64,000 bases of DNA from Ignavibacteria bacterium (lineage in GTDB: Bacteria > Bacteroidota > Ignavibacteria > Ignavibacteriales > SURF-24), in NCBI GenBank assembly GCA_025612375.1, contig JAAXKN010000001.1, positions 40,669 through 104,668 of the forward strand, in the 5' to 3' direction. The position numbers and the translations under genes were made by a program. The notes under the pieces were generated by a model. It had not been told where the DNA came from and ran no database searches. It saw only the letters and a program-made list of their open reading frames with translations. Within the stretch, counting starts at the first letter, position 1; every line of letters begins with the position of its first letter. Shown here one piece after another: positions 24,561 to 57,000 of this stretch.

Positions 24561-24650
24561 GGAGAGATGGGTGAGTGGCTGAAACCAACGGTTTGCTAAA
24601 CCGTCGTAGGGGGTAAACCTCTACCCCGGGTTCGAATCCCGGTCTCTCCG
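24561..24650 (+). tRNA. tRNA-Ser (anticodon GCT)
   Basis: Hand-folded. Acceptor GGAGAGA/TCTCTCC with G73. Anticodon stem ACGGT/ACCGT with loop TTGCTAA. Long variable arm GTAGGGG..CCTCTAC. T arm CCGGG-TTCGAAT-CCCGG. Confidence 0.92.
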
Positions 24651-24663
24651 CATAATGATAAAA

Positions 24664-26000: not shown

Positions 26001-26002
26001 TT

Positions 26003-26368: not shown

Positions 26369-26472
26369 GAATTCCGATTTGGATACTATTTTTTGAAGAT
26401 TTTAAATATTTTTATGAGAAGCTAAAAAGGGCTTTTTTCTATGTTATGTAAAAAGGATTATAGAACTCAGAA

Positions 26473-27402: not shown

Positions 27403-27428
27403 TTTATTCCTCAATAATTATTTTTGTT

Positions 27429-31585: not shown

Positions 31586-31868
31586 AATACGCCTCAAAGG
31601 TTTGTTGATGTAAATTATTAATGTAACCAGTATTTTTCAATCTGAAGTAGGAGTTCATATTTTATAGACACTTAGAAATATTTCTTGATTTCTTTACATT
31701 ATTAGTTCAGATATTTGGAAATGCTAAACAGCACATTTGTCATAGGTAGTCGATGATTTGAACTGAATTATTCGAGGTCAGTAATGTTTGATAGTCAAAG
31801 AAGAAAAAATATTTTCATTTTTCATTGCGCTATCTTCATATCAATTAAATGAATTCCATATAATAGTT

Positions 31869-32630
31869 TTACATGGTCCGCCGACTTTTGAAAGCTTTGA
31901 CATCCTCTTTTGATAGAAGAAACCATTCACCATTTTTTCTCTTTTCAACGAATCTTCTATGCCAGTATTTTTCAATTCCAAAAGTATCATCTGTTTCTAT
32001 TTTATGAATTAATTTAGGTTCTTCAGGCAACTTCAATCCTATTTCTTTTTTTCTTCTCTCCACATCGCAGCTTAGTCCAACCTTATAATATTTCCCCGAT
32101 TTCATCATATAAATAAATCCGTAGTTATATTTTTCATCCGTTTTCACAATCTTATTTTGTGGTGCTATTATTTTATATTCTTTTCGGCATATGGTCTGAA
32201 TATCAGACAATTCTTTTTTCCCTTTACAATATATCAGTAGCCTTTCCATTAATTCACTTTTTCGCCCAAATCTCTTATAAAACAACTGATAATATGGAAA
32301 GCTTTTTTGATATTTATAATATTTCATCTTTATTTCTGCATCTGTTGGATACTTACCAATTTCCCTAATAAACTCTATAAGCTTACTTAGAAGTTCTTCA
32401 TCGGTATATTTTTCTACTTTCATTGTATTTGGCTTTATTCCAGCTTCTTTTACAGCATCACTCCATTTTAGCCAATACTTATTTATCATATATTCCGTAA
32501 TATCATATTGCTTGCAGAATGTTTTTACGCCTACATCTAATTTCCCTTTTGAATTAGCAACATTTTTAATTGCTTTCAATATCTCTTTTTTTGTCATATA
32601 ATTCCCCAATAAAAAAGGTGCAGACCTCAT
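31869..32630 (-). CDS. homing-endonuclease-associated repeat x2 plus T5orf172/MUG113 (GIY-YIG-clan) domain protein
   Basis: GFIYMMKSGKYYKVGLS..RRKKEI..IEKYWHRRFVEKRKNGEWF fits the T5orf172 pattern. The N-terminal half has two YTDEELL..G.P-type repeats. The likelier start is the ATG at 32597. Confidence 0.6.
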   Translation of the reverse strand: MRSAPFLLGNYMTKKEILKAIKNVANSKGKLDVGVKTFCKQYDITEYMINKYWLKWSDAVKEAGIKPNTMKVEKYTDEELLSKLIEFIREIGKYPTDAEIKMKYYKYQKSFPYYQLFYKRFGRKSELMERLLIYCKGKKELSDIQTICRKEYKIIAPQNKIVKTDEKYNYGFIYMMKSGKYYKVGLSCDVERRKKEIGLKLPEEPKLIHKIETDDTFGIEKYWHRRFVEKRKNGEWFLLSKEDVKAFKSRRTM

Positions 32631-34476: not shown

Positions 34477-34677
34477 TTCACATGAGAAATAAATTAAATT
34501 ATCCATCTGTCCCGGATTTAAGTTCTAAAACCCTTTACTTTGCAAGAAGGATGTTTCTGGTTTATACGAAATTTGGTTAAATTCACATGGGCGTAGTTTT
34601 GGATATAGGTAACATTTGCCCGCAGGCACTGCGTTCACAATATCTGCAATAGTCTTTACTTTTTAGGAATACATTTG

Positions 34678-36429
34678 ATGAAAAGGCTCTACTTCATAAT
34701 TTTTATACTTGGAATTACATCAACTATATTTTCCCAGAACTTTAATCCGGTTAAATGCAGGGCTTTAAATCGTGACTGGAAAACCATTATCGACACAACA
34801 TGGGGAGAGGGAAATCCAACTGCGGTTAAACTGGCAGTGTTTGATTCCGTTTGGAACACAATAGACCGCCAGTATGCCTGCTTTCAGAACCTTGATATTG
34901 ACTGGAAAGCGCTAAAAGATAAGTACAGACCTGAAATAGAAAGTGGAGTAAGCAGGGGCAGATTTGCGGCTATCATGAATTATCTTGGATTAAGTCTTCA
35001 GGAAACACACACAAATTTTTCAGATCCGGGAGTAAATTATAGATATGTATTAGATGCTCCTCCTGGAGCCCCCATCCTTTATACAGGCTTTTGGGGACGA
35101 GATTCCCGTTTCGGGGCCGGACTCACACCCCTTGCTGACAGTTCACTGCTGGTATATCAGGCTGTTGAGAATCATCCGCTTGGCTTGATACCAGGAGATA
35201 TTGTTCTGGGCTATGACGGCGTACCCTGGAAAATACTTTATAAGGAACTGCATAAGCTTGAAATACCCATTAATATGTCAAGCCAATGGGGATCAAACAA
35301 TGAGGCATTCACGCACCTATGGCTTTCAGGAGCAGGACAGAACTGGCACTTGTTCGATACAATTGATATAAAGAAATTCAGAACAGGCGAAATTGTCCAC
35401 ATCCCTACAAATCTTTTGGTAAATAAGAAATTCAATATTACTTATTCCGAACAGTTGCCTGTTCCCGGAGTACCATGGATAGATAAAAGCAATAATTGGT
35501 CTGTTGCCTGGGGCATGGTGGAAGGGACAAAAGTAGGATATATCTACGTTTGGAATTGGTTTAGTGGAATTTCAGTGAAATTTCATAACGCACTGGATTC
35601 GCTGATAAATGTCAATAAGGCTGAAGGTCTTATTCTGGACTTCAGAGCAAATTATGGCGGGTATGTAAGGGAAAGTGACTGGGGACTAAGCCTTCTTTTT
35701 AAGAATTCTGCTCCTACTTTATCTTTAGTTACCAGAAGTAACCCGTATGATCATTTTCAAATGAAGAATACATCTAATTACATTTTTTCAGATGATTCAA
35801 CTGCTTATTTTGATAAGCCGATTGCCGTACTGACTGGACCAATGTCAATAAGCGCTTCTGATTTTATTGTAAAAAGACTGCAGTACCATCCCAAAGTAAG
35901 GGTATTCGGGAAGTCCACATCTTCAGCATTTGCATCCGCCTCAAGAATTATGATTTCTAATATCGAATTGGATTTTGCCGAATATAACGGTATGGATATT
36001 AGTAATCCCGGGGAATATCTGACGCATAATAAACAGAAAGTGGATGATGATGTTTGGTTTACTCCGGAGGACGTAAACAAAGGAGAAGATTCAGTAGTTA
36101 AAGAAGCTTTGAAATGGATAAATGATAATGTACTTTCTATACATCCTGAAAACACATCTGTAGTAACAGAATTCAATCTTAAACAAAATTATCCAAATCC
36201 TTTCAACCCGGCAACAACCATAAGCTATTCAATCCCAAAAGGGGCATTTGTTGACCTGAAAGTATTTGACATGCTGGGACGTGAAGTATCAACACTTGTA
36301 AGTAAAGAACAAAGTGCAGGAGAGTATAAGGTTCAGTTTGACGCATCCTCCCTGCCCAGCGGAGTGTACATATACACTTTGCAGGCAGGCCAGTTCAAAG
36401 ATTCCAGGAAACTACTAATCCTTAAGTAA
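34678..36429 (+). CDS. peptidase S41-like (tail-specific protease family) with T9SS C-terminal domain
   Basis: LILDFRANYGGYV and GPMSISASDFIV match S41 motifs. The C-terminal NYPNPFNPATTISYSIP..SGVYIYTLQAG..LLILK matches the CTD pattern. Confidence 0.7.
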   Translation: MKRLYFIIFILGITSTIFSQNFNPVKCRALNRDWKTIIDTTWGEGNPTAVKLAVFDSVWNTIDRQYACFQNLDIDWKALKDKYRPEIESGVSRGRFAAIMNYLGLSLQETHTNFSDPGVNYRYVLDAPPGAPILYTGFWGRDSRFGAGLTPLADSSLLVYQAVENHPLGLIPGDIVLGYDGVPWKILYKELHKLEIPINMSSQWGSNNEAFTHLWLSGAGQNWHLFDTIDIKKFRTGEIVHIPTNLLVNKKFNITYSEQLPVPGVPWIDKSNNWSVAWGMVEGTKVGYIYVWNWFSGISVKFHNALDSLINVNKAEGLILDFRANYGGYVRESDWGLSLLFKNSAPTLSLVTRSNPYDHFQMKNTSNYIFSDDSTAYFDKPIAVLTGPMSISASDFIVKRLQYHPKVRVFGKSTSSAFASASRIMISNIELDFAEYNGMDISNPGEYLTHNKQKVDDDVWFTPEDVNKGEDSVVKEALKWINDNVLSIHPENTSVVTEFNLKQNYPNPFNPATTISYSIPKGAFVDLKVFDMLGREVSTLVSKEQSAGEYKVQFDASSLPSGVYIYTLQAGQFKDSRKLLILK

Positions 36430-36542: not shown

Positions 36543-37268
36543 TCACTTAAATAGCAGTAATTTCTTTGAATCGGTGAACTGTCCTGCCCTGATCGTGTAA
36601 ATGTATATTCCGCTGGGAAGATTGGATGCATCATAATGAACAGTATAAGTCCCTGCTTCTTTGTATCCGTTAACCAGTACAGCCGCCTCATTGCCAAGTA
36701 TGTCGTAAACCCTTAGACTTACAAACTGGCTCTTTGGTAATAAAAATGTAATGTTTGTACCTGGATTAAAAGGATTGGGATAATTCTGCTCTAAGGAATA
36801 CTTGTCAGGCCCCGGGTTTTTACCTGTTTCAACTCCGGATGTGCCCAATAGATTTAACGGCATGCTGAATACTCCCCCGCCTTCAGTTCCTGCAAAGAGG
36901 TCAGATTCGCTTGCTGCCAGAGATTTAACACTAGTATTTGTAAGGCCCGTATTGACCTTACTCCAGTTCGCCCCGTTATTTGCCGATTGGAATACCCCTC
37001 CGGGAGTCCCGGCAAAAAGATTAGAACCGCTAACTGCAATAGTGTAAATATCGTTATATGGTAATCCAGTGCTGCGCTGAGTCCAGCTTTCGCCATTGTC
37101 AGTTGACACGAATACTCCGCCATTTGTTCCGGCAAACATATTATTCCCGCTTACAGCCAGGGAATAAAAACTATAACCGCCGGACGGCCCGTTGGTATGT
37201 ATCCACTGTACCCGGATCTGAGCAACCAGACATAAAATAAATGTTAAACTTAAGAGCAGTCGTTTCAT
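36543..37268 (-). CDS. BNR/Asp-box repeat protein with T9SS C-terminal domain
   Basis: 241 aa with a signal peptide, STDNGESWTQ and SANNGANWSK Asp-boxes, and an NYPNPFNPGTNITF.. CTD. Confidence 0.65.
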   Translation of the reverse strand: MKRLLLSLTFILCLVAQIRVQWIHTNGPSGGYSFYSLAVSGNNMFAGTNGGVFVSTDNGESWTQRSTGLPYNDIYTIAVSGSNLFAGTPGGVFQSANNGANWSKVNTGLTNTSVKSLAASESDLFAGTEGGGVFSMPLNLLGTSGVETGKNPGPDKYSLEQNYPNPFNPGTNITFLLPKSQFVSLRVYDILGNEAAVLVNGYKEAGTYTVHYDASNLPSGIYIYTIRAGQFTDSKKLLLFK

Positions 37269-40054: not shown

Positions 40055-40312
40055 ATGCCGGAAATTTGCAGATTTTATGGCATTATAATATTCATGAACT
40101 ACAATGACCACAATCCTCCTCATTTTCACGCAAGGTATCAGGAGCAGGAAATAATTGTGGAAATACAGACAGGAAACATTGAAGGTAAAATGTCCCAAAG
40201 AGCTCTTACAATGATTTTCGAGTGGACAGACAAATACAGAAATGAGCTTCTTGAAAATTGGGAGCTGACAAAGCAAAGAAAATCATTGAAAAATATTCCT
40301 CCACTTCACTAA
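40055..40312 (+). CDS. DUF4160-family protein
   Basis: MPEICRFYGIIIFMNYNDHNPPHFHARY.. matches the characteristic DUF4160 N-terminus. Confidence 0.8.
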   Translation: MPEICRFYGIIIFMNYNDHNPPHFHARYQEQEIIVEIQTGNIEGKMSQRALTMIFEWTDKYRNELLENWELTKQRKSLKNIPPLH

Positions 40313-40315
40313 AGG

Positions 40316-40576
40316 ATGATTATGTTTTTACATATTGAGCATTTTGAATTTAAGGGCGGTTACAGTCTAAAAGTCAGGTTCAATAATGGAATTGAAAAGG
40401 ATGTAGATCTTTCGAATGAACTCTACGGAGAAGTATTTGAGCCCCTTAAAGATGAATCTTATTTCAGAAAAGCATTTCTCAACAGGGATACCAACACAAT
40501 CGAATGGCCTAATGGTGCAGATTTTGCTCCCGAATTTCTCTTTGAAATAGGGAAAGAGGTAAGAAGATCCGCCTAA
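40316..40576 (+). CDS. DUF2442-family protein
   Basis: ..LKVRFNNGIEKDVDLS..IEWPNGADFAPEFLF matches the DUF2442 pattern. It starts 3 nt after the DUF4160 gene. Confidence 0.8.
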   Translation: MIMFLHIEHFEFKGGYSLKVRFNNGIEKDVDLSNELYGEVFEPLKDESYFRKAFLNRDTNTIEWPNGADFAPEFLFEIGKEVRRSA

Positions 40577-40793: not shown

Positions 40794-42146
40794 ATGCTCA
40801 GGTTAAACTTAGTTCTGGCAGTTCTTTTTATTTCATCTATTGTTTCAGCTCAGACATGGGTAAAACTTAACCCCAATTTCCCAAAACCGGATACGGTAGG
40901 TCGGATAGCCCAGATTATATTCACAAGTAAGAACATTGGTTGGCTATACACAACGTATGACAATACCCCTCATATTGATTTTGTAAAAGTACTATATAAA
41001 ACGACTGATGGCGGTCATAACTGGGAGACTACGAAGAAAGAGATTACCAACAGGTATTCAACCTTTACAATGTTTTCGCTTGACCCTAACCATTTAATTA
41101 CAGTAGATGTGAACTTCTTTGACAGCACCTTTACTTCACTTCGAACATTAGATGGCGGGGAAAGCTGGGACTCGACACTTTTGGCTCCTCAGAAACACTA
41201 TTATTCGGGAGGGGATAATATTTACTTCTTCGACAAAGACAACGGGATCTTTTTCAACGACAATAGGTGGTTTACAAGGGATGGAGGCCGTTCCTGGGAA
41301 AAGGGAGAAGATAACTTTTATTTGCCATACGTAAGTGGTGTCGATTTTGTAGATCGCAACCTGGGTTGGATTGTCTGCAGTTATTCCAACTATGCTACTG
41401 ACAGCGGAGCCATTCTTGTGACTGCTGATGGAGGTAAAACATGGCAATACCAGGATTCTTTAGCTATGATACTGTATGGAGTCGATTTTATCACTCCCGA
41501 TAAAGGATTTGCCGTGGGTACAAACTGGGACCACTCTACGGGATTCATATATTCAACAATTGATGGTGGTAAAACCTGGCAGCACGAGCAGTTTAAGGAT
41601 TTTGGAGCATTCACGGACATTAAATTTTTGAATGACACCGCCGGGTGGATTACCTGCGCCGATCCCAGAAAGCTAAATACCGGAAAGATCTTAAGAACGA
41701 CAGATGGCGGGAAGTCGTGGGAGATACAAGCTAGCGGCATCAGTTCACAGTTAAAGAAAATTATGATCAGGGATAATACAGGTTTTATTTTTGGTGACGA
41801 TTACAATTTAATGACTCATACACTTCTCCGGGCAGATCTTTGTAAGATTACAGGGGTAAAGGATGGTCAAACGGAACTCCCGTCTGACTTTTGCCTTTCC
41901 CAGAATTATCCTAACCCATTCAACCCCACTACTACAATCAACTATTCAATTCCCAAAGCTTCATTCGTTGAGATGAAGGTTTTTGACATGCTTGGACGCC
42001 AAGTTCAGACGCTCGTAAATAAAGAACAAATTGCAGGAGATTATTATATAAAGTTTAACGGCTCTTCCCTGCCGAGCGGAATGTATGTGTATTCAATTCA
42101 CGCCGGAGAGTTAAGAGCTTCAAAGAAACTCATCCTGATTAAATAG
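40794..42146 (+). CDS. BNR/Asp-box (Ycf48/sortilin-type) beta-propeller protein with T9SS C-terminal domain
   Basis: 450 aa. Six SxDxGxxW boxes: TTDGGHNWE, TLDGGESWD, TRDGGRSWE, TADGGKTWQ, TIDGGKTWQ and TTDGGKSWE. NYPNPFNPTTTINYSIP CTD. Confidence 0.75.
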   Translation: MLRLNLVLAVLFISSIVSAQTWVKLNPNFPKPDTVGRIAQIIFTSKNIGWLYTTYDNTPHIDFVKVLYKTTDGGHNWETTKKEITNRYSTFTMFSLDPNHLITVDVNFFDSTFTSLRTLDGGESWDSTLLAPQKHYYSGGDNIYFFDKDNGIFFNDNRWFTRDGGRSWEKGEDNFYLPYVSGVDFVDRNLGWIVCSYSNYATDSGAILVTADGGKTWQYQDSLAMILYGVDFITPDKGFAVGTNWDHSTGFIYSTIDGGKTWQHEQFKDFGAFTDIKFLNDTAGWITCADPRKLNTGKILRTTDGGKSWEIQASGISSQLKKIMIRDNTGFIFGDDYNLMTHTLLRADLCKITGVKDGQTELPSDFCLSQNYPNPFNPTTTINYSIPKASFVEMKVFDMLGRQVQTLVNKEQIAGDYYIKFNGSSLPSGMYVYSIHAGELRASKKLILIK

Positions 42147-42310: not shown

Positions 42311-43675
42311 TCAGGCCGGCAGAAGAGGAAGTGCCGGTGGAACTATGGGAGTTTCCTCCGGAGCATCCAGCTCAACTAACTCCCCGTTTTCGAGCCTGAG
42401 CGGGAACTTGATTCCCTGCACTGAATGACGCGAGGCGCACAGATTAATGAAGAATATTTCACTGGAAAGATAAATTTTCTTATTGTACTCTATTGTCTCC
42501 GCCGCATTGTTTGCAGCGGGCCTGGAAACAGAGAAAAGGAAGTTGCAGTCGCGTGCAAGAGCTATGCTTTCGCTTAAGTTTACAGCCGAGTCATCTTTTT
42601 CCCTTACGGCCGTGCGGTTAAGCTGTGTGAGGGCTATAATGCAGACGTTAAGTTCAGCGGCAAGGCTTTTCAGCATTCTTGACAGGTAGGCTACTTCCTC
42701 TTCCCTTGAACGCAAAATCCGGGAAACATTAATGAGGTTTACATAGTCTATAAATACGCACTTTACACCGCAGCTTATGACCCAGCTCCTCATTCTGGAC
42801 TTCACCTCTTCATCGTTCATGGATCCTGTATGGATATAAATTGATGCATCTTTTAACACTTCAGGAGCCTCCCTGAGTCTTTCCATCTCGGTTTTTGTAA
42901 GCATCTGCGGCTGCCTCAGGTGCCCGAAGGGTATGTGCAGTTTTGCGCTCAGGATCTTTTGTATAAACTCATCTTCTGTTACTTCCAGGCTCATGTAGCC
43001 CACTTTGTACCCTGAATTCAGTGCCAGGTCGCACGCCATCTCAAGTGCCAGGGTGGTTTTACCCACCTTCCATGCGCCCGCAATTACCATCAGGTTCTGC
43101 AGCTTGAGCCCGTTTGTGGCTATGTTGAAGTGATGGAGCTTCCTGAACCTTAAAGAATTATTCTCCAGCGGCGCTAGGGTTTCTTCCTCAAGGCGGCTTA
43201 AATATCCCGGCACGATTTCTGCGAGTGTCATATCGGTGTAAAAGTTGTCCCTGAGGCTAACAAGCTCTTCGAGGCGGCCGGTCAGGTTCTGAGCCTCATC
43301 AAGGCCTTTTCCTGTTTCAATGGCCCTGCCCACTAAGGCCGGCGTAATGCTGCTCAGTTCAAGTGCGATATGGCAATCCATGAGCTCCTGGCACTGGAAT
43401 ATGAGCGCAGGCTCGTCCGGTATGAAGTCTGTTTTCAGATAATCATTTATCACGATTCCGTTCTGCCTGAACGAGGCTTCAAGCATTGCATCCGTCAGGC
43501 TGCCCGCATTATAGAGCTCTTTTATGAGGCTGTATACTACCCTTTCATTGCCGCTGAAACATCGTAAAGGAAGCCTCTGCAAAACTATGTAAGTCAGTGC
43601 AGGATCATAAATAATACAGCTAAGGACGAAGACTTCAAGCTGCTTTTTTTTAGATTTGAGGCATGTCTTATCCAT
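42311..43675 (-). CDS. DnaB-like replicative helicase (mobile-element type)
   Basis: 454 aa with a DnaB-N-like N-terminal domain, RecA-fold Walker A GAWKVGKTTLALE and Walker B CVFIDYVNL. Confidence 0.7.
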   Translation of the reverse strand: MDKTCLKSKKKQLEVFVLSCIIYDPALTYIVLQRLPLRCFSGNERVVYSLIKELYNAGSLTDAMLEASFRQNGIVINDYLKTDFIPDEPALIFQCQELMDCHIALELSSITPALVGRAIETGKGLDEAQNLTGRLEELVSLRDNFYTDMTLAEIVPGYLSRLEEETLAPLENNSLRFRKLHHFNIATNGLKLQNLMVIAGAWKVGKTTLALEMACDLALNSGYKVGYMSLEVTEDEFIQKILSAKLHIPFGHLRQPQMLTKTEMERLREAPEVLKDASIYIHTGSMNDEEVKSRMRSWVISCGVKCVFIDYVNLINVSRILRSREEEVAYLSRMLKSLAAELNVCIIALTQLNRTAVREKDDSAVNLSESIALARDCNFLFSVSRPAANNAAETIEYNKKIYLSSEIFFINLCASRHSVQGIKFPLRLENGELVELDAPEETPIVPPALPLLPA

Positions 43676-43695
43676 GAGATTTACTCCTTTTGATG

Positions 43696-44604
43696 TTAAA
43701 TGATTTGGTAATTCTCAGTAGAGCCGAACGGTTCATTGTAGTTATTCGGGTATGATCTATTGACGCCGCTGTAAGATGATCTCATTTCTCTTAAGAGCCA
43801 GTTCCTTATAAAGCTTTCGTAATCGCGCCTGGGAGCCTTTTGGTTCCTTATATATTCGTCCATGTTATAGAAGTGAGCGCGTAATCCATCCTCGGAAAAC
43901 CTGAGGGAAAGTTTCTCAGTAAGCTTTTCTTTCAGTGCGCAGGTTACATAAAAGTTGTCCCCCCTGTAAAATATTGTTTCCTTTTCCAGAGGCAGAAATT
44001 CAGCGGAATACCGCCTGGGGCTGCCTGAAATTTTGTCCCCTGATTTTTCCTCTTTTAGACTGCCTGCCTCTGAAGAAGATGCTTCCGGGTCTTCTTTTTT
44101 CTTTAATCTATATTCATTTATATTTCCTTTGTTTCCCAATTGAGGACTCTGGGCGTTTCCCAGTTGAACACTCTGATGTGTCCCAAATGGGGACTGTTTC
44201 CCTTTTGGGGACTCTTTTTCCATGGGAACGATGGAATCCTTTTCAGCGACTTTTGCCTGAGGCTTTCCGCGCGACTTATACTTATGGAATCTTATCCATG
44301 TCCTATAGTCCTTATTTACAGACAGCACCCTTCCTTTATGGCCGGCTGCGGCCTCCTCCAGGACAAAGATTATATTGGCTTCAATAAGCTTTTCAAGCGC
44401 CTGTGCGGCCCTTGGGAATGTTGAACCTATATCCCTGGCAATAAACCTCACGGCCAGTTCATGCGAGTCCCTATGGTAACCCAGTGTATGCCTCATAACT
44501 GATAAAAGCACCCTTAACTGCAGGCCGGAAATCTCAAGCCTGTAACTTTCCTCGAACATGCACGTGCATACCTGTAAAAAAGGCTCTTTCGTCCTCTGTT
44601 CCAT
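43696..44604 (-). CDS. phage replication protein O-like initiator (N-terminal wHTH)
   Basis: LQLRVLLSVMRHTLGYHRDSHELAVRFIARDIGSTFPRAAQALEKLIEANII fits the Phage_rep_O N-terminal pattern. A low-complexity linker is encoded by the iteron-like repeats. Confidence 0.6.
   Translation of the reverse strand: MEQRTKEPFLQVCTCMFEESYRLEISGLQLRVLLSVMRHTLGYHRDSHELAVRFIARDIGSTFPRAAQALEKLIEANIIFVLEEAAAGHKGRVLSVNKDYRTWIRFHKYKSRGKPQAKVAEKDSIVPMEKESPKGKQSPFGTHQSVQLGNAQSPQLGNKGNINEYRLKKKEDPEASSSEAGSLKEEKSGDKISGSPRRYSAEFLPLEKETIFYRGDNFYVTCALKEKLTEKLSLRFSEDGLRAHFYNMDEYIRNQKAPRRDYESFIRNWLLREMRSSYSGVNRSYPNNYNEPFGSTENYQII
44132..44215. repeat. four to five iteron-like direct repeats inside the O-like gene, next to an AT-rich tract (44093-44130)
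   Basis: tttcccaattgaggactctg (44132), tttcccagttgaacactctg (44156), tcccaaatggggactg (44181), tttcccttttggggactc (44197). Spacing is 24, 23 and 18 nt. Confidence 0.6.
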
Positions 44605-44606
44605 GG

Positions 44607-45029
44607 CTAGTCCTTTCCCTTAATATTAACCAAAGACTCTTTGCGCCTGCGCATTGTGAAATAACGCGTAAGGCGCTTTATATGACGGGTAAGCAAAAGA
44701 GGGTACCTCAAGCCGCTTCCGGGCACACCGGGCGGAAAATTACGGCAGGTGAACTCGTGGTGCCTGTTAATGATCAGATACAACTCATGGAGATACTTAA
44801 GAACCGGCAGAAAAGAATCCCGGGGTATTTTCTCCCGCAGCAGTTCAGAAACTGCATAAGGGTTTATGTTCTCCGACTTATATACCAGAACTGAAACTGC
44901 CTCTGCGACAGTCCTGTTCAAAGGAGCCTGAAAATCCCTTTTATAAAGAGCAAGCAGGCAATTCAGCATTGCCTCATTGGGGGTTTCGGGACTGAAGAAG
45001 ACGCAGAGCAGTTTTTTCTCAGCATTCAT
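44607..45029 (-). CDS. hypothetical protein, first gene of the replication-module operon
   Basis: The ATG at 45029 lies 6 nt after a GGAGGA RBS. The gene ends 2 nt before the O-like gene. No motif recognised. Confidence 0.45.
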   Translation of the reverse strand: MNAEKKLLCVFFSPETPNEAMLNCLLALYKRDFQAPLNRTVAEAVSVLVYKSENINPYAVSELLREKIPRDSFLPVLKYLHELYLIINRHHEFTCRNFPPGVPGSGLRYPLLLTRHIKRLTRYFTMRRRKESLVNIKGKD

Positions 45030-45421
45030 GACCATTCCTCCGGCAATTTGTATAATCCAGACTAAAGGTGCGGGAACACTAATGCTAAATGTCATTCCCG
45101 GGCTGAGGGGTCCAGCCCCGGATAATACTTCCAGCGCTGCAGGATCCGAAAAAGAGAACAGATTTCAGTAGATTTGATGCAAATGGGGATTCCCTTAATA
45201 ATGTACAACTATTATAATATACATAATAGTTTCCTAAATGCAAGTTTTACTAGTCACAATCCGGCCGCATTTTTACATTTTTTGCACATTTACGCCATAA
45301 ATTGCGCTAATTTTACAAAAGGTAAGATTTTATTATTGCAGTTAAGTATACTTTAAGCCTGTTTTTAAAGGATAATTTCGCAGATATATAAGGCAAGCAT
45401 CCCGCTTCAGAAAGGAACTTT

Positions 45422-48534: not shown

Positions 48535-48910
48535 GATTCAGCATGTATAGCTTCTTTTTGTGATCTATAGCACAATGTGGAGCTGTTTTCAAATCAGCCC
48601 CGTTTTTGAAGTAATTTCAAGGTTTTTTAATCCGGTAAGGAGTTCCTTTGATTAAAAAAAGCCCCGTGGAAGGCCTGGCCGGGCCCTTCCCAGGGCTTCA
48701 CATTTTAAGACAGCCCGTTAAATCTTCGCTTTGTACTTGCGGTTCTTCGGTCAAATTATTTGTTTATATTTGGGTGCAAATAAATATAACCTTCCACCAG
48801 GCTAACAAGAACTCTGCGGCCGCATGGATAATTATACTGAAAGTCATGGTAATGACTGGAACTATTTAGAAAGGGTTGTAATGATGAAATAATAAATATG
48901 AGAGGACGTT

Positions 48911-50179
48911 ATGAAAAAGCTATGTTTATTTGTTCTGATCCTTGCCTCTTCCTATTCCTTCTGCCAGGATACAAACTGGGTGACATACAACACTAAAAAC
49001 TCAAAGCTGCCCTCGGATAAGATCAACTCCGTGGCAGTTGATTCTTTTGGCGTTAAATGGGTCTCGGCCGACAAAGGCCTCGTTAAAATTGCCGGGAAGG
49101 ACTGGACGCTCTACGACAAATCAAATTCTGCCGTAACATGCCTCTACCCGGGCAAAATTACAATCGAGGGTAAGGATACTATCTGGCTATCCACATTCTG
49201 CGCGGGACTTATAAGGTTCGACGGCAAAAACTGGAAAGTTTATAACAGCTCCAACTCTCCCCTGCCGGGGGATAAATGGGTAACCGACGTTGCAATAGAT
49301 CCCCACGGGAATAAATGGATTGGAACCGGCACCGGCGGGGCGGCCAAGTTTGACGGCAAAAACTGGACTGTCTATAACACTTCAAACTCCAAGATCCCCA
49401 GCAATCACGTAAACTGTGTTGCCTACCACAGCATGATGGGCCTTACGGTCTTCGGCACGGACAGCGGCGTTGCAATGTATGACGGGACCAACTGGATGAT
49501 CAACAATAAGGACAACTCCCCCCTGCCGGGCAATGATGTTCAGACGATAACTATCGACAAAAAAGGAGTCCTCTGGGTGGGCACCAAGGGACAGGGATTT
49601 GTAGCCCATGCAGGCACAACGTGCGATATTTATAATATTTATAACTCGGGACTGAAAAGTAACTTTGTAAGTATAATTTTCATAGACAAAAATGATCAGA
49701 AGTGGATTGGGACAGAAACCGGAGGCCTGCATAAATTCCTTGCCCCCGACTGGAGCGTCTACGACACTTCCAATTCAGGCATCGCAAGCGATTCCATTAC
49801 GGCAATTACTGCTGATACAAGCGGGGCTATATGGGTCGGAACAATTAACAAGGGTCTTTCAGTTTATTATCCGCCTCTGTCGGATGTAGAAGACGGCCCG
49901 GGCACGGGAAGCATCCGTTCATATTCACTTTCGCAGAATTATCCCAATCCTTTTAACCCTTCGACCAGGATCACTTACGCAATTCCGCAGGAAGAATTTG
50001 TTAGCCTTAAAATTTACAATGTTCTGGGAAGCGAAGTGGCCACCATGGTAAATGAAGTTAAAAGGGCCGGCAGTCATTCGGTGGAGTTTAACGCATCGAA
50101 GCTTCCGAGCGGAGTGTACATTTACACAATAAAGGCAGGAAAGTTCATGGATTCCAGGAAGCTATTGCTCCTGAAATAG
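48911..50179 (+). CDS. Reg_prop (two-component regulator propeller) repeat protein with T9SS C-terminal domain
   Basis: 422 aa with repeated W(I/V)GT..G(L/A)..(F/Y)DG.NW..Y units and an NYPNPFNPSTRITYAIP CTD. Confidence 0.7.
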   Translation: MKKLCLFVLILASSYSFCQDTNWVTYNTKNSKLPSDKINSVAVDSFGVKWVSADKGLVKIAGKDWTLYDKSNSAVTCLYPGKITIEGKDTIWLSTFCAGLIRFDGKNWKVYNSSNSPLPGDKWVTDVAIDPHGNKWIGTGTGGAAKFDGKNWTVYNTSNSKIPSNHVNCVAYHSMMGLTVFGTDSGVAMYDGTNWMINNKDNSPLPGNDVQTITIDKKGVLWVGTKGQGFVAHAGTTCDIYNIYNSGLKSNFVSIIFIDKNDQKWIGTETGGLHKFLAPDWSVYDTSNSGIASDSITAITADTSGAIWVGTINKGLSVYYPPLSDVEDGPGTGSIRSYSLSQNYPNPFNPSTRITYAIPQEEFVSLKIYNVLGSEVATMVNEVKRAGSHSVEFNASKLPSGVYIYTIKAGKFMDSRKLLLLK

Positions 50180-50333
50180 TCCTTTAATGCATTTTTATTA
50201 GTGTACCGCGAGATTATTTACCCCGGAGGCAGCCTGTTAAAACTGTTTCCGGGGTTTTCCATTTTAAATGGGCATATTTCCCGGCCAGAAAAATCAAAAA
50301 ATTCTTGCACACATGAATAATATGCGGTATTTT

Positions 50334-50351
50334 TCGATATTAAAATATCGA
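50334..50351. promoter_or_regulatory. palindrome TCGATATT-AA-AATATCGA 35 nt upstream of rex
   Basis: 8-bp inverted arms read directly from the sequence. It is not the canonical Rex box. Confidence 0.3.
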
Positions 50352-50385
50352 TATATAAATATCAATAAAATACGAGCATGTTTTA

Positions 50386-51057
50386 ATGGATTCCTTCCCG
50401 GAAAATGCCGAAAGGCCTGACACTATAATCAGAATGCCGACCGTACGCCGCCTGCCCAGGTATTTAAGGCTGTTAAACCAGCTTAAATCAGAGGGCAGAG
50501 AATTTGTTTCCTCAGACAGAATTGCGCAGGAGCTGGATCTTAAACCAATTGTGGTGCGCAAGGATCTGGGTTTTACAGGCATTTGCGGCAAGCCCCGCAT
50601 AGGCTACAGCGTTGAGCATTTAATTATTTCAATTGAGAATGTCATTACTTTCAAGGGGAAAGACATAGCATTTTTAGCCGGGGTTGGAAATCTGGGTTCA
50701 GCGCTATTGGGTTACAATGGTTTTGGGAAGTATGGATTAAACATTGCAGCCGCATTCGATCCTGATAAAGAAAAAGTAAATAAGACAGTCCACGATAAAA
50801 ATATCTATCCGCTTGAAATGCTTCCGGAACTGGCCTCACGCCTGCATCCGCATATAGGAATACTGTGCGTACCTGAAGAATCGGCACAGGAAGTAACGGA
50901 TATAATGGTCTCCTGCGGAATTAAGGGGATCTGGAATTTCTCAAGCAAGGAACTAAAAGTCCCCTCTGATGTAGTTCTTCAGAATGAAGATCTGGCAGCA
51001 GGGCTTGCAGTTTTGTCCATTTCAATTGACAGGAAATCAAAGGCTCCGGTGAAATAA
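50386..51057 (+). CDS. rex: redox-sensing transcriptional repressor Rex
   Basis: RLPRYLRLLNQLKSEG..VSS..IA wHTH followed by the Rossmann motif AGVGNLGSALLGY. Confidence 0.85.
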   Translation: MDSFPENAERPDTIIRMPTVRRLPRYLRLLNQLKSEGREFVSSDRIAQELDLKPIVVRKDLGFTGICGKPRIGYSVEHLIISIENVITFKGKDIAFLAGVGNLGSALLGYNGFGKYGLNIAAAFDPDKEKVNKTVHDKNIYPLEMLPELASRLHPHIGILCVPEESAQEVTDIMVSCGIKGIWNFSSKELKVPSDVVLQNEDLAAGLAVLSISIDRKSKAPVK

Positions 51058-51058
51058 T

Positions 51059-51337
51059 ATGGCAATTGACACAGAAAAGAAAAAAGTATGCATATGCATG
51101 GGAAGTTCCTGTTTTGCACGGGGAAATGATAAGAACCTTGGGATAATTGAAGAATGCATTTCGAATTACAGGCTGCAGGAGAAAGTTGAGCTTTCCGGCA
51201 GCAGGTGCGAGGGAAGGTGCTGTAAAGGGCCCAACATTCTAATAGATGGAGTTATTCACAACCAGGTTGAATCGGGCTGCCTGCTTGACCTTTTGGATCA
51301 GATGTTAAAGAAAGGATACTCAGATAATAATCAGTAA
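51059..51337 (+). CDS. thioredoxin-like [2Fe-2S] ferredoxin (NuoE/HndA-type)
   Basis: 92 aa. The Cys pattern CMGSSC ... CEGRC (Cx4C..Cx3C) is followed by GPNILIDG. Confidence 0.7.
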   Translation: MAIDTEKKKVCICMGSSCFARGNDKNLGIIEECISNYRLQEKVELSGSRCEGRCCKGPNILIDGVIHNQVESGCLLDLLDQMLKKGYSDNNQ

Positions 51338-51399
51338 CATTAAAATTTCATGCTTTTTCAGATTTGGATGAATAATCTTAAGCAAGCAGGAGACAAGGT

Positions 51400-53154
51400 A
51401 TGGATCACAGCCATCCTATATACACCGAAATTGTAGAGTGCCAGGACTGTTATAAATGCGTGCGGGGCTGCCTTTCGAAGGCGATCCGCGTTCAGGACGG
51501 GCACGCCAGCATAATAAAAGAACTGTGCACAGCCTGCGGACATTGTGTGGCAATATGTCCGGCCAAGGCAAAGAAGGTAAGAAATGACGTAAAGCGGGCA
51601 GAGAATCTTCTGCAGAGAAAAGCCAAAGTTATTGCCTCAGTTGCACCTTCCTGGGCCGCAGAATTTCCGGATATGGATTCATCAGTCCTGATCAGCGCCA
51701 TAAAGGCGCTCGGCTTCTACGGCGTCAGTGAAACCGCTCTGGGTGCACAGGAAGTCTCGGCACGCCTGATTGATGATCTTAACGCATCAAAAGCCGCATT
51801 ATCTATTTCATCGGCATGCCCGGCTGTAGTGGAGTACATAAGTAAGTACATGCCGGCTTACAAAAAAAACGTTACCGCAATTACATCTCCCCTTCTTGCC
51901 CATACGAGGATTTTAAGGAAAGAATACGGCAATGATATCGGCATAGTATTCTTCGGACCGTGCACGGCAAAAAAGCTTGAGGCCGACCGCAATAAGGATA
52001 TGCTGGATCTGGCGCTGACGTTTCATGAACTGAAGGAATGGCTTTCAGCAAAAGAAATTAAACTGCCGGCTAGCCCTGAAAACTCCGGCGAGAGTTTTAT
52101 TCCCTGGCCTGCCCATGAAGGAAGCGTTTACCCGATTGAAGGAGGAATGAATGAAACTCTTACGGGCTGGCTTGACAGAAATAAAACAGAAACCTTTTCC
52201 GTAAGCGGGCTGGACGGGTTAAGATATTACCTTGAGAATTTTGAGAGCAGCAGCCTGGATAAAAATATATTCCTGGAAGCACTTGCCTGCAAGGGGGGCT
52301 GTATCAACGGGCCGTGCAGATCGGAGGCAAGCACAGGGTTAAATGACAGGCTGCAGGTCAGAAAGAGGGTAATTTATCCTGAGAAAAACCAAAAGAGGAC
52401 CCCCTGCGTCAGTACGGATCTTCCCCTGCCCTACTTGCTGCCTGCAAAACAGGATTCATCTTCAAAAAGTGAACTCACTCTGGCGCTGGCTAAAATCGGC
52501 AAGACTTCCCCTTCCGACGAGCTGAATTGCGGAGGCTGCGGCTACGATACGTGCCGGCTCTTTGCAGAGGCTTTGATCAACAAAAAGGCTGAGACAGCCA
52601 TGTGTGCCTCTTTCATGAAAAAGCAGGCACAGAAAAAGGCAAATGCGCTTTTAAGGTGCATGCCCTCGGCTGCAGTCATAATAGATTCCGGTTTAAGGGT
52701 AATTGAATGCAACAGGCATTTTGCCGAAATGTTCGGCGAGGAGACTCTGCAGATATACAAGGTGCTTTCAACATTAAACGGTGTATACATTGAGAAGATA
52801 CTGCCGTTTGCAAATTTATTTAAGACCGCACTCAGGACGGGAGATGACATTTCAAGAGAGAACTTCAAGTCGGATGGCAAGCTTCTCAACATCAGCATAT
52901 TCACCATTGAGCCGCAGCAGACCGTAGGCGCAATAATACAGGATGCAACGAGCATAGAGGCAAAGCGTGAGGCCATTGCAAGTAAGGCAAATGAAGTGCT
53001 CAGAAAAAATCTGAATACTGTTCAGGGCATTGCCAAGCTTCTGGGTGAACACATGGCTGATACCGAAATTATTTTAAGATCCATTGCCAAAGGCTTTACG
53101 AATGACGAAGCGCAGCCGGTACTAATAAAGCAGCAGGGGTCTCAGGAGAAATGA
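51400..53154 (+). CDS. sensory [FeFe]-hydrogenase-like protein (HydS / group C type) with PAS domain
   Basis: Two 4Fe-4S motifs at the N-terminus (CQDCYKCVRGC, CTACGHCVAICP). H-domain motifs SSACPAVVEY, FFGPCTAKKLEA and EALACKGGCINGPC. A CGGCGYDTC Fe-S motif, then a PAS-like segment (AVIIDSGLRVIECNRHFAEMFG). Confidence 0.7.
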   Translation: MDHSHPIYTEIVECQDCYKCVRGCLSKAIRVQDGHASIIKELCTACGHCVAICPAKAKKVRNDVKRAENLLQRKAKVIASVAPSWAAEFPDMDSSVLISAIKALGFYGVSETALGAQEVSARLIDDLNASKAALSISSACPAVVEYISKYMPAYKKNVTAITSPLLAHTRILRKEYGNDIGIVFFGPCTAKKLEADRNKDMLDLALTFHELKEWLSAKEIKLPASPENSGESFIPWPAHEGSVYPIEGGMNETLTGWLDRNKTETFSVSGLDGLRYYLENFESSSLDKNIFLEALACKGGCINGPCRSEASTGLNDRLQVRKRVIYPEKNQKRTPCVSTDLPLPYLLPAKQDSSSKSELTLALAKIGKTSPSDELNCGGCGYDTCRLFAEALINKKAETAMCASFMKKQAQKKANALLRCMPSAAVIIDSGLRVIECNRHFAEMFGEETLQIYKVLSTLNGVYIEKILPFANLFKTALRTGDDISRENFKSDGKLLNISIFTIEPQQTVGAIIQDATSIEAKREAIASKANEVLRKNLNTVQGIAKLLGEHMADTEIILRSIAKGFTNDEAQPVLIKQQGSQEK

Positions 53155-54326
53155 AAGACCAGCAGATGTTTGTAGATATCGATTATGCCCAGGAAAAGAA
53201 GTCCGGTGAAGAGATCTGCGGCGATTCATTTGCCGTAAAGCAGTTCCGGGAGGGGCACAGGCGCATTGCTGTACTTTCAGACGGGCTTGGAAGCGGTGTA
53301 AAAGCCAATATTTTGTCGTGCATGACCGCGGAAATGGCAATTCGTTTTATTGCAAATGAAATGGATATTATTGAATCCATAAAGATTATTATGGACGTGC
53401 TGCCGGTGTGCGAGGTGCGCAAGATCAGTTACTCGACCCTGACAGTTGTTGATACGCAGCTCTACGGTGAGACCAGAATAATTGAGATGGGTAACCCGCA
53501 GTTTATTCACCTTCGGGGAGACAAAATTATTCCCTCTGAATTCAAACTCTATACTGCTGCCGGCTGGCAGAACAGGACCATACGAATTTCGGAGGTGAAT
53601 GTGGAGCCGGAAGACAGGATAATAATTTTCTCTGACGGAGTAACTCAGGCAGGACTTGGCAGCAGGAATATTCCAATGGGATGGCGTGAAAAAGGATGCA
53701 GGGACTTCATTGTTTCTCTGGTTTCAAAAAATCCTTTTATTTCCGCCGCAAGGCTTTCCGAAGAGATAATCCTTAAGGCAAGGCATTGCGAGCCCGATGC
53801 GCAGGCACATGACGACATGACCTGTTCTGTTCTTTATTACCGCCGTCCCAGAAAGACTATTGTAATGACCGGTCCCCCTTTCCACCCTGAAAAGGATTCA
53901 GACTACGCACAGAAGCTAATTCAGTATAACGGGAAAAAAGTAATCTGCGGGGGCACTACTGCAAATATTATTTCAAGGGAGTTAAATCTGCCCGTAGAAA
54001 CTTCCATAAAAAGACAGGGGGATCTGCCCGCAGCCTCCAAGATGTCCGGTATCGATCTTGTAACGGAAGGCATCCTTACGCTTACAAGAACATACCAGCT
54101 CTTAAAGGACAGGGACAACTGGCAGGATGAGACCGCGGCGGCTGATCTGGTAAAACTGTTAAAGGAAAGCGACATAATCGACTTTTACGTCGGGACTCGC
54201 ATCAATGAGGCGCATCAGGACCCCTCGCTTCCAAGGGAGCTTGAGATCCGAAGGAACATAATAAAAAAGATTAAGGCCATACTGGAAGAAGAGTACGTAA
54301 AGGAGATCCACCTGTTCTATATTTAA
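53151..54326 (+). CDS. SpoIIE/PP2C-family serine phosphatase with an uncharacterised C-terminal domain
   Basis: SDGLGSGVKANILS, IIFSDGVTQAG and DDMTCSVLYY. The start overlaps the hydS-like stop (ATGA). Confidence 0.7.
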   Translation: MKDQQMFVDIDYAQEKKSGEEICGDSFAVKQFREGHRRIAVLSDGLGSGVKANILSCMTAEMAIRFIANEMDIIESIKIIMDVLPVCEVRKISYSTLTVVDTQLYGETRIIEMGNPQFIHLRGDKIIPSEFKLYTAAGWQNRTIRISEVNVEPEDRIIIFSDGVTQAGLGSRNIPMGWREKGCRDFIVSLVSKNPFISAARLSEEIILKARHCEPDAQAHDDMTCSVLYYRRPRKTIVMTGPPFHPEKDSDYAQKLIQYNGKKVICGGTTANIISRELNLPVETSIKRQGDLPAASKMSGIDLVTEGILTLTRTYQLLKDRDNWQDETAAADLVKLLKESDIIDFYVGTRINEAHQDPSLPRELEIRRNIIKKIKAILEEEYVKEIHLFYI

Positions 54327-54464
54327 CTGCAATCTTAATGCCCATTTGGGGCTTATTTCCTGGAAAGGTCCCTAATGCAAAGTTTTTCTCAGGGCGCGGG
54401 AACATAATATGTTCATAATGCGTCTAAAGATGTAAAGTTTCTCTTAATTTGTTTATTTATATGC

Positions 54465-54497
54465 AGGCCGGAAGCTGCACAATCCGGCCTTTTTTTA
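54465..54497 (+). terminator. intrinsic terminator after the rex-hydS-PP2C operon
   Basis: Stem aggccgga / tccggcct, then a T7 run. Confidence 0.65.
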
Positions 54498-54582
54498 TGT
54501 TTCCCTATTTTTATTGTCCCCCGCCCGGGTGGGGCGCGCAGGAATGTAATTCAGTCCATTTTTGTAATATATTGAGGAATCC

Positions 54583-57000
54583 ATGAAACTCAGACCTGTT
54601 CTCCCGTTTATTATGCTCATTTTATTCTATTCCCTGGGTAATGCCCAGACAACTCATGAAACATACAAGGTTACCGGCGCAATTGCCGACAGCGCGACCA
54701 GCAAGGGACTTGCAGGCGTTAATGTTGTCATCTTGTCGCGCGCGGACAATAAAAACCTGGGCGGCGGCACCACGGACGCAAAGGGAAACTTTTCAGTTGA
54801 TAACATTAAAAAAAGAAACGTCAGGGTTAAATTTTCGATGATAGGTTACCAGACGAAGACGCTGGATTCAGTGGATCTGGAAGCGACCCCGCGCGTTGGG
54901 CTTTTTAAGCTGAGATCAACCGTAATACAGATGCCTGAAATTGTAGTACAGACCGTAAGACCTATGGTTGAATACAAGGTGGACAGGCAGGTTATAAATA
55001 TGGACCGGGTGCCCGGAAGCAGCGGGTCTGTAACTGATGCCTTGAAGAATTCCGGTACAGTGGAAGTGAACCCTTCAAACAACAATATCACGGTAAGGGG
55101 CCAGTCTGTAAAGCTTCAGATGGACGGACGCCCGTTTGAGATGCCCGCGGATATGCTTTCGCAGATGCCGGCTTCAATGATCGAGCAGGTGGAGGTTATT
55201 CTTGCACCCGGCGCCAAGGAAAGCGCTGAGGGAGGAGCATACATTCTGAACCTCGTTTCAAAGAAAAATGACATGGATAACTATAACGGTTCGGTTAACG
55301 TCAGCTCATCTACAAATAAAATGAATTTCGGCGGGCTTAACATGAACTACAAAGAAGGCAAGCTCAACATTTTCACCTCATTTTTCGGGGGCTTCGGCGA
55401 ACAGAGCTTTATAAGTGAAACAAACAAGTTTAATTACGACAGCAAAAGCCTCTATCATGAATATGGCAGAAGCGATAACACTATGCCGGGCAACATGGTC
55501 AATTTCAAGCTCGGGGCAGACTACGACCTGGATGCCAACAACTCATTTACTTTCTACGGAGCCTACAGCAGAACAAAGTTCGACGGCGACAACAAGAGCG
55601 GCAATACGGTCTGGAATCAAAACAATATAGCCCAGTATACCTACAGCAACAACAGCAAATCGGGCAACAAGTGGGCAAACCTTTCATTCTACGGATTCTA
55701 CAAGAAGAAATTTGCCGACAAGGGGCACGAGATAACCTTTGATGCCATGTATACCGATATGGATATGCCTTCAACATCGGACCTCAGCATAGGCTACAGC
55801 TACCGCCCATCTACCCCCTATCAGCAGAAGAGCAGCACGGGCGTTAATGCAAAGACGTTTATTTTTAAGGCAGACTATACCAGGCCCATTGAAACCGCAA
55901 AGCTCGAGTCGGGCTACAGCTATACATACAGAACGAGAGATAACGATTACAGCGTTCGGGATTTTTCATATCTCGCAAATGCATGGCAGGACAGCATGAG
56001 TCTGAGCAACCTTTTCAGGTACAGAGAGGATATTCATGCAGCATATGCAACTTATTCACAGAAGTTCGGGCGCTTTGACCTTAAAGCTGGAATCAGGGCC
56101 GAGAACCTGCATACACAGGGTGACCAGCTGACTTCGGGCGAGGACTTTTCGGGAAATTTCTTCAATCTTTTCCCGAATTTTAACCTTGGTTATAAACTGA
56201 ACGATATGTTTATGATCACATTTAACACTTTCAGGAGGGTTACTTATCCGCAGGTGTACTACATTAATCCTTTCAAGCAGTACATGGGTCCAAACAGCTA
56301 CAGGATGGGCAACCCGGGGCTGAAGCCTTTTTTCCTGAACTCATACAGCCTGAGCCTGTCGCAGTTCATAAACGTTTACTATGTATTCTCCAACGGCAAT
56401 TTCACCCGCTTTACAGGAAATGTTGACGACAGCGTTTCGGTTTACAGCTTTATCAACCTGGGAAAAAGCAAATTGTACGGAGTTGAGCTTACGCTTCCCT
56501 ACTACAATTCGCCTCAGATGCCGGTACATCTGCCCGACTTTATATCGATGATGAATGTGGTCTGGGGATTTACTTACCGCGAGCAGGAAGGACAGTACCT
56601 GAGCGAAAACCTTACTTACGCCGACAGGCGCATGTGGCTGAGGGCAAACCTTGCCCTGAACCTCTGGTACGACGTAAGCATGAGTACATTTTTTATGTAC
56701 AGTCCCAGGACGAAAAACGCCAGAATGACATCAAACGCCACAAAGAATCTTTCTATTTCATTCAGCAAGTCGTTCCTGGACAACAAGCTGAAGGTAAACT
56801 TAAGCTTTTCAGACCTGCTAAGGGCGATGAGGTTTGATAATGAAACATTCGGAAGCAACTTCTATTCTTTTGAGAAATTCACGATCAACAACAGCAGGAG
56901 CGTGAGCCTGGGGCTGACCTGGATGTTCAACGATTACAAACCCCACCGCGAGCGCAATATTGATGATGGACGTGACAAGGCCGAAGGAGGAATGTTCTAG
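54583..57000 (+). CDS. TonB-dependent receptor-like OM beta-barrel with N-terminal CarboxypepD_reg domain
   Basis: 805 aa; signal peptide, VTGAIADSATSKGLAGVNVVI, a plug-like region, a long beta-barrel, and a C-terminal ..AEGGMF. Confidence 0.75.
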   Translation: MKLRPVLPFIMLILFYSLGNAQTTHETYKVTGAIADSATSKGLAGVNVVILSRADNKNLGGGTTDAKGNFSVDNIKKRNVRVKFSMIGYQTKTLDSVDLEATPRVGLFKLRSTVIQMPEIVVQTVRPMVEYKVDRQVINMDRVPGSSGSVTDALKNSGTVEVNPSNNNITVRGQSVKLQMDGRPFEMPADMLSQMPASMIEQVEVILAPGAKESAEGGAYILNLVSKKNDMDNYNGSVNVSSSTNKMNFGGLNMNYKEGKLNIFTSFFGGFGEQSFISETNKFNYDSKSLYHEYGRSDNTMPGNMVNFKLGADYDLDANNSFTFYGAYSRTKFDGDNKSGNTVWNQNNIAQYTYSNNSKSGNKWANLSFYGFYKKKFADKGHEITFDAMYTDMDMPSTSDLSIGYSYRPSTPYQQKSSTGVNAKTFIFKADYTRPIETAKLESGYSYTYRTRDNDYSVRDFSYLANAWQDSMSLSNLFRYREDIHAAYATYSQKFGRFDLKAGIRAENLHTQGDQLTSGEDFSGNFFNLFPNFNLGYKLNDMFMITFNTFRRVTYPQVYYINPFKQYMGPNSYRMGNPGLKPFFLNSYSLSLSQFINVYYVFSNGNFTRFTGNVDDSVSVYSFINLGKSKLYGVELTLPYYNSPQMPVHLPDFISMMNVVWGFTYREQEGQYLSENLTYADRRMWLRANLALNLWYDVSMSTFFMYSPRTKNARMTSNATKNLSISFSKSFLDNKLKVNLSFSDLLRAMRFDNETFGSNFYSFEKFTINNSRSVSLGLTWMFNDYKPHRERNIDDGRDKAEGGMF

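Follow-up and report, generated by a model that had tools for sequence, protein, structure and literature searches.

A probable lambdoid-type replication module with a candidate origin inside its initiator gene in an uncultured Ignavibacteria genome

Does a replication initiator gene that stands apart from any recognizable phage contain an origin of its own? We addressed this question for a stretch of 64,000 nucleotides (nt) from an Ignavibacteria bacterium (contig JAAXKN010000001.1), referred to as the window, with positions counted from its first letter. Three adjacent genes on the minus strand of the window encode a protein of 140 amino acids (aa), an O-like replication initiator of 302 aa, and a DnaB-family helicase of 454 aa. 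An earlier description of this locus, the sequence-only reading, had called it an orphan replication module resembling that of phage lambda. Our analysis indicates that it is very probably a self-contained, lambdoid module for theta-type replication with its own origin, in which an initiator is paired with a DnaB-type helicase of the element itself, as in genes 18 and 12 of phage P22. The module is a real yet ordinary case of the well-known origin-in-initiator-gene design.

An iteron array within the initiator gene

The three open reading frames (ORFs) are arranged head to tail on the minus strand, with 2 nt between the 140-aa ORF and the initiator gene and 20 nt between the initiator and helicase genes, as in the three-gene operon with 2-20 nt gaps that had been described earlier. 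The first gene (44607..45029) is called as 140 aa in public assemblies and is referred to as the ORFan; an in-frame ATG at 45095 extends its longest reading to 162 aa. The second (43696..44604) encodes the initiator, assigned from its Pfam Phage_rep_O and PHROG matches. The third (42311..43675) encodes the replicative helicase, which is the element's own and was assigned from matches to Pfam DnaB_C and PHROG_19.

Within the initiator gene, a repeat search, motif counts, and a weight matrix identified four direct repeats of 21 nt each (44130..44215, minus strand), which are presumed to be iterons bound by the initiator. The copies start at 44130, 44154, 44177, and 44195, a spacing of 24/23/18, and are 81-86% identical to the reference copy. 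In gene orientation, they begin at gene nt 390, 408, 431, and 455, in steps of 18/23/24, and the array occupies nt 390-475. The iterons contain a partial dyad of the TCCC-N5-GGGA type. Their core, TCCCNNNTGNNNACT, was found nowhere in the 64-kb window outside the array; its four occurrences there compare with an expectation of 0.35 from shuffling, and none of 100 shuffles reached four. Similarly, the four copies scored 27-32 bits with a weight matrix derived from them, and the next best site in the window reached 12.8 bits. The sequence-only reading had counted four to five repeats. Four of these stand and the fifth does not: a weight-matrix scan returned nothing above threshold beyond the four. 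Two candidates for additional iterons fell below the same threshold, namely a promoter-proximal site (a 10-nt match at 45171-45189) and a palindrome-like sequence, TTCCCATGGAA, adjoining the array.

Directly 3' of the last iteron along the direction of transcription lies an A/T-rich tract of 38 nt (44093..44130, minus strand; gene nt 475-512), the presumed DNA-unwinding element. The tract is 84% A+T and A-strand-biased, with 66% T on the plus strand, and the most AT-rich 30-mer of the initiator gene sits in it (90% versus a gene mean of 55%). These measurements agree with the earlier description of an AT-rich tract of about 38 nt adjoining the repeats. Together, the iterons and the tract encode aa 130-172 of the initiator. 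In an AlphaFold2 model, this segment falls wholly inside a linker (aa 109-197) that is predicted to be disordered, with a predicted local distance difference test score (pLDDT) below 50. Coding constraint is weakest in this linker.

The repeats do not encode a repeated peptide. Copies 1 and 2 translate as SPKGKQ and SPFGTH, and copies 3 and 4 as SVQLGN and SPQLGN. The frame differs between copies 2 and 3 because the 23-nt step is not a multiple of three. Thus, it is the nucleotide sequence that is conserved and not the peptide, and the repeats are DNA-level elements rather than a peptide repeat. The sequence-only reading had itself considered that homologs might keep the repeats as peptide and not as DNA. 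What we found is that the copies differ in frame within a single gene, and that homologs keep the position of the array, its spacing, and its A-rich flank while the iteron sequence changes.

Upstream of the operon, a low-GC non-coding region (45030..45421, minus strand; GC 0.35-0.38) is the presumed location of the promoter. A weight-matrix scan of this region detected no iteron-like site. The terminator-like hairpin of the upstream GNAT gene lies within it, at 45405-45393.

The module proteins and their relatives

The initiator matched the Pfam family Phage_rep_O (PF04492) over aa 6-103, scoring 32.0 bits (E = 1.8e-7) where the gathering cut-off is 28.7 bits, and several PHROG families for 'replication initiation O-like' proteins matched it with E values of 1e-9 to 4e-7. 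In the AlphaFold2 model, which was based on a 23-sequence alignment, the N-terminal domain (aa ~10-105; pLDDT >90) has the order helix-helix-strand-helix-helix-strand-strand, and a confidently predicted C-terminal domain (aa 200-283; pLDDT >90) follows the linker. Foldseek searches with the N-terminal domain returned weak matches to winged-helix DNA binders of the MarR/ArsR type, the best at E = 6e-3 and none at or below 1e-3. At the sequence level, the initiator profile matched none of the solved structures.

Relatives of the initiator were mostly confined to this domain. A phmmer search of 1.84 billion representative proteins yielded 660 relatives, almost all limited to aa 1-105, and the best full-length relative, P0009, was 38% identical. 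A truncated fragment, P0010, from the organism of locus L007 was 57% identical over 88 aa. The C-terminal domain is common to P0009, P0013, and P0018 and is also present in the truncated homolog on L007. A word-index protein search returned no initiator relative besides the initiator itself, and alignment-based scans of metagenome contigs and viral contigs returned no closer one. The nearest isolate phages showed ~30-35% identity to the N-terminal domain of the initiator and ~25% to the helicase.

The helicase contains a DnaB_C domain (Pfam, 1.1e-40) and matched PHROG_19, 'DnaB-like replicative helicase', over aa 12-421 (8e-53), as well as solved chains of DnaB and SPP1 G40P. The family matches of the two proteins bear out their earlier naming as an O-like initiator and a DnaB-like helicase. 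The Pfam N-terminal DnaB domain was undetected in the helicase, its score against the NCBIfam DnaB model TIGR00665 (142.6 bits) was far under the equivalog cut-off of 385.25, and an alignment scan of 185,579 species-representative genomes found no relative. On these grounds, the gene is an accessory one from a mobile element and not a chromosomal dnaB. A homolog with 68% identity, accompanied by a homologous initiator C-terminus, occurs in a different gene context in another metagenome-assembled genome (MAG; L007). The ratio of nonsynonymous to synonymous substitution rates (dN/dS) between the two helicases was 0.15, which points to purifying selection on the helicase. The contigs with the 68% homolog (L007, positions 1-308; L008, positions 1-104) end inside the initiator gene, ~100-300 nt before the expected iterons.

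Among characterized systems, P22 provides the closest layout. Its initiator gene 18 is followed by its own DnaB-family helicase gene, gene 12 (~455 aa), in the same order as in the window. The P22 replication origin is annotated inside gene 18, at nt 353-497 (nt 390-512 in the window), and consists of four iterons with a spacing of 20/24/23 followed by an A-rich tract. However, the P22 module is part of the early operon of a complete prophage, with c1 and the nin genes, whereas the window module stands alone with the unrelated ORFan before it. Moreover, the iteron sequences of P22 differ from those of the window, its helicase gp12 is 23% identical to the window helicase (E = 2.6e-15), and BLAST showed no significant similarity between the two initiators.

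Phage lambda shares with the window the O-family N-terminal domain and four mid-gene iterons with an internal dyad of the TCCC...GGGA type. The lambda iterons are annotated from gene nt 349 with a spacing of 20/24/23 and, along transcription, are followed by an A-rich tract. The two systems differ in helicase supply: lambda relies on the DnaB of its host, which O recruits by way of the loader P, whereas in the window the DnaB-like helicase is encoded by the element and neither a P-like nor a DnaC-like loader is present. Since the window helicase gene lies directly 3' of the initiator gene without a recognized loader, the 18/12 layout of P22 is closer than the O/P layout of lambda. Lambdoid origins lie in the middle of gene O and comprise iterons and an AT-rich tract (PMC7466680). 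The claim of the sequence-only reading that the iterons and AT-rich region inside the initiator gene mirror lambda was confirmed on every point that is computationally testable.

Formation of an O-some, melting of the A/T-rich DNA, recruitment of the helicase through the initiator C-terminus, and transcriptional activation are known from lambda and P22. By analogy with these phages, initiator dimers would bind the four iterons through their N-terminal winged helix and wrap the DNA, and the resulting strain would open the adjacent A/T tract. The C-terminal domain of the initiator would then bring in the element's own helicase, possibly aided by the 140-aa protein, and host primase and polymerase would complete replication. 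Transcription of the initiator gene would pass through the origin, as it does in lambda, and such read-through may activate it.

The ORFan could be an unrecognized helicase loader. It is predicted to be all-helical. A single-sequence AlphaFold2 model had a pLDDT of 50 and was unusable. The sequence-only reading had left the function of this protein unassigned; indeed, no Pfam, PHROG, NCBIfam, or PADLOC family matched it significantly, and a match to the DnaB N-terminal domain was sub-threshold (E = 0.038). A word-index search of 5.8 billion proteins found only the ORFan itself. Three loci with related modules (L009, L012, and L013) contain ORFs of 130-135 aa directly upstream of the initiator gene, and BLAST related the ORFan to none of the ORFs that occupy this position in related modules. 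Among these upstream ORFs, those of L013 and L009 are distantly related (E = 2.5e-8), the match between L012 and L009 is marginal (E = 0.014), and that between L012 and L013 is not significant. As the upstream ORFs are at best mutually distant and are unrelated to the ORFan, the slot is conserved and its occupant is not.

Origin geometry across O-like genes

To place the array in the context of the O family, 32 O-like genes were scanned uniformly: those of the window, of loci L011-L014, of IMG/VR viral contigs, and of lambda, together with an HTH_36 gene beside the helicase homolog of L009. At least four repeat copies were found in 25 of the 32. In most of them, the array starts at gene nt 310-345, proceeds in steps of 18-24 nt, and is followed by a tract of 62-93% A/T. 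By comparison, four or more copies were reached by none of 100 codon-shuffled versions of the initiator gene and by 1 of 52 segments taken from other genes in the window.

The closest initiators, those of L011, L012, L013, and L014, are 38-41% identical to the window initiator in the N-terminal domain, and in L013 and L014 a DnaB_C helicase gene lies directly downstream. The spacing is 18/23/24 in both the window and L012, 18/18/23/24 in L013, and 18/23 in L011. Two copies in L012 are 100% identical and 65 nt apart, hence out of frame. The iteron cores of these loci differ from those of the window (in L014, no intragenic array was detectable), and their upstream ORFs of 130-169 aa are unrelated to the ORFan. 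Thus, the iteron sequences vary between loci, and the frame AGTyC...GGkAAACA and the A-rich tail are kept among the closest relatives. This pattern is as expected if an initiator and its sites co-evolve.

Similar arrays occur in more distant modules. Modules of Firmicutes-type prophages in IMG/VR share the N-terminal O-type domain, and their initiator genes contain four or five iterons (gene nt 313-413) with an A-rich tail. The modules of L104 (RecE, RecT, an O/DnaD-like protein, and a DnaC-like loader) and L096 (an O-like protein and a primase-helicase) differ from that of the window in their C-terminal domains and in their partners, and relatives with such partners are located in the early regions of prophages. 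Their iteron spacings are 19/24/24/24, with most copies in frame, and 19/23/24, respectively. O-like genes with iterons occur in lambda, P22, and IMG/VR contigs. Overall, the geometry of the array is conserved across the O family well beyond detectable similarity of the iteron sequences.

The spacing varies between individual loci. The frame-breaking 23-nt step, as x/23/24 or 20/24/23, recurs among very distantly related O-like genes, namely those of L011-L013, L096, L111, L015 (lambda), and L129 (P22). The Firmicutes-type prophage relatives L099-L110 have a spacing of 19/24/24(/24). In L098, five copies, four of them identical, are spaced at exactly 24 nt.

These results extend the origin-in-initiator design of lambda and P22 to a very remote lineage, an uncultured Ignavibacteria/Bacteroidota genome; otherwise, the finding is biologically expected. 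The conserved geometry comprises a start just past the winged helix, steps of ~18-24 nt including the frame-breaking 23-nt step, and an A-rich tail. This signature could serve the annotation of origins in metagenomic mobile elements, and the module could be a candidate replicon for vectors in a poorly tractable group.

Genomic setting and standing of the module

Several results weigh against the identification of the locus as a lambdoid module with its own origin. The score of the initiator against the NCBIfam model phage_O_Nterm (TIGR01610), 36.1 bits, is below the cut-off of 45.5, and the protein is therefore to be regarded as a remote member of the O family. It shares 20% identity with lambda O (E = 0.007), and BLAST detected no significant match to P22 gp18, so that it is very remote from characterized initiators. 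Families of P-like, DnaC-like, or DnaD-like loaders were not detected in the three module proteins with Pfam, PHROG, and NCBIfam. In L014, whose initiator shares with P0009 and P0013 the C-terminal domain of the window initiator, no iteron array was detectable in or beside the initiator gene. The intragenic origin is thus not universal; the origin of L014 must be located at another place or have degenerated beyond detection. As to the element, no flanking direct or inverted repeats of at least 11 nt mark its boundaries, no precise empty site was obtained among the sister genomes, which are syntenic only from 48.6 kb rightwards, and no circular form was present in six assemblies. Current firing of the module is, on the evidence of the sequence, much less certain than its identity.

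The module is isolated. No integrase or phage structural gene was found within ~16 kb on either side, in agreement with the sequence-only reading, and no PHROG structural match was found at 24-48 kb. The neighbors encode secreted proteins with type IX secretion system (T9SS) tails, outer-membrane beta-barrels, a DUF4160/DUF2442 pair, a GNAT acetyltransferase, and a GDSL lipase. The sister MAG L016 (Ignavibacteria bin-C14), in which shared genes have 80-92% protein identity, is syntenic only with window 48.6-57.0 kb. This block (48600-57000; L016 5960-14421) encodes a T9SS Reg_prop protein, Rex, an Fe-hydrogenase-like sensor, a SpoIIE phosphatase, and a TonB-dependent receptor. The L016 genes left of 48.6 kb are unrelated, which places the module in a variable region. 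The T9SS tails of the window are 46-73% identical to a T9SS-tail protein of L007 and therefore produce spurious 'synteny' matches between genomes. Finally, the module occupies the same chromosomal junctions in six independent assemblies from six samples. With no adjacent integrase or structural genes, no synteny in the sister genome, and the same site in six samples, its description as an orphan is justified. The GC content of the module is 0.466 versus 0.416 for the window, rank 8 of 307 equal-length windows; it is thus GC-richer than its surroundings, as had been proposed, modestly rather than dramatically so.

The sequence-only reading had offered a decayed prophage, a satellite, or a plasmid-like replicon as the source. 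An iteron-type plasmid replicon was rejected: a tblastn search with the initiator found no match at E <= 1e-3 among 72,556 PLSDB plasmids. An intact prophage or integrative element was also rejected, as there are no contiguous integrase, att-like repeats, or structural genes. The module appears to be what remains of an integrative element, namely its replication block. The parent element, a prophage or else a small island with an integrase such as that of L014, would have lost its integrase and other genes, leaving the module stranded. The three genes are intact and the helicase is under purifying selection, and therefore 'decayed' applies to the surrounding element and not to the module. The L014 module, unlike that of the window, resides in an integrative element within a 445-kb contig. 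An integrase is encoded there 2.4 kb downstream of the initiator gene, and the element adjoins a type I restriction system. In L014, the O-like gene, helicase, and integrase lie at 5000-6900. An integrase fragment lies upstream of the related module of L009.

The alternative that survives best is that the module is still the active replicon of a small mobile element, such as a satellite or integrative plasmid without an integrase of its own. Under this scenario, in-situ excision or amplification might follow induction, perhaps through the integrases at 24.9-27.4 kb or a helper phage. In its favor, all three ORFs are intact and closely coupled, the iterons show good preservation (81-86% identity), the module is GC-richer than its flanks, and the relatives in L014 and L009 belong to compact integrase-bearing elements. 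The low helicase dN/dS relative to the 68% homolog also fits an active replicon, although purifying selection could predate the stranding. Nevertheless, we consider this alternative unlikely. The ~16 kb on either side contain neither att-like repeats nor genes for an integrase, an excisionase, or packaging, host-type T9SS genes lie between the module and the distant integrases, and the six assemblies share their chromosomal junctions without a circular contig.

A second alternative is that the module is retained for the benefit of the host, either as a replication-interference or exclusion locus or as an auxiliary, conditional second chromosomal origin. In the interference version, the resident iterons and initiator might titrate or mis-fire the replication machinery of incoming elements that share their specificity, comparable to the 'inhibition phenotype' of lambda. 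There is a precedent in ori-lambda: plasmid-borne ori-lambda iterons with oop exclude rep-lambda phages (PMC3349717). The fixed chromosomal site in six samples, the intact genes in the absence of other element genes, and purifying selection on the helicase are consistent with a retained function. However, an oop-like element was not identified, and no PADLOC defense family matched the initiator or the ORFan; the helicase gave a weak partial match to PDC-S73 (5.8e-6). Moreover, nothing points to a conserved host function, since the 185,579 species representatives yielded no relatives. The module is absent from the available sequence of L016, although that contig stops 7.8 kb upstream of Rex and is non-syntenic there. 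A host-beneficial role is thus highly doubtful.

Finally, that the repeats only encode a low-complexity linker peptide or are a chance feature, without DNA-level function, is barely credible: although the segment is rich in Ser, Pro, Gly, Lys, and Gln and predicted to be disordered, and linkers tolerate repeats, the two frames created by the 23-nt step rule out a peptide repeat, DNA identity between the copies (81-86%) is above peptide similarity, homologs with different iterons keep the position, spacing, and A-rich tail, and the shuffles exclude chance.

A tRNA-Ser(GCT) gene (24561-24651, plus strand) is directly followed by two minus-strand genes for tyrosine recombinases, one at 24921-26000 (Pfam Phage_integrase, 6e-34) and one at 26473-27414 (5e-21). 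These are the nearest integrases to the module (24921-27414, ~16 kb away) and, with the tRNA-Ser gene, probably represent one or two integrative islands. In the variable region, a gene at 31869-32630 encodes a 253-aa protein with an HNH-associated repeat and MUG113/T5orf172 (GIY-YIG-like) domains, and is adjoined by a gene for a bPH_2-domain protein (30977-31597). Genes for proteins with T9SS C-terminal sorting domains are located at 34675-36429, 36543-37268, 40794-42146, and 48911-50179, with more beyond 57 kb. The DUF4160/DUF2442 gene pair (40055-40576, plus strand) lies 1.7 kb from the end of the helicase gene and is toxin-antitoxin-like, as is typical of mobile DNA.

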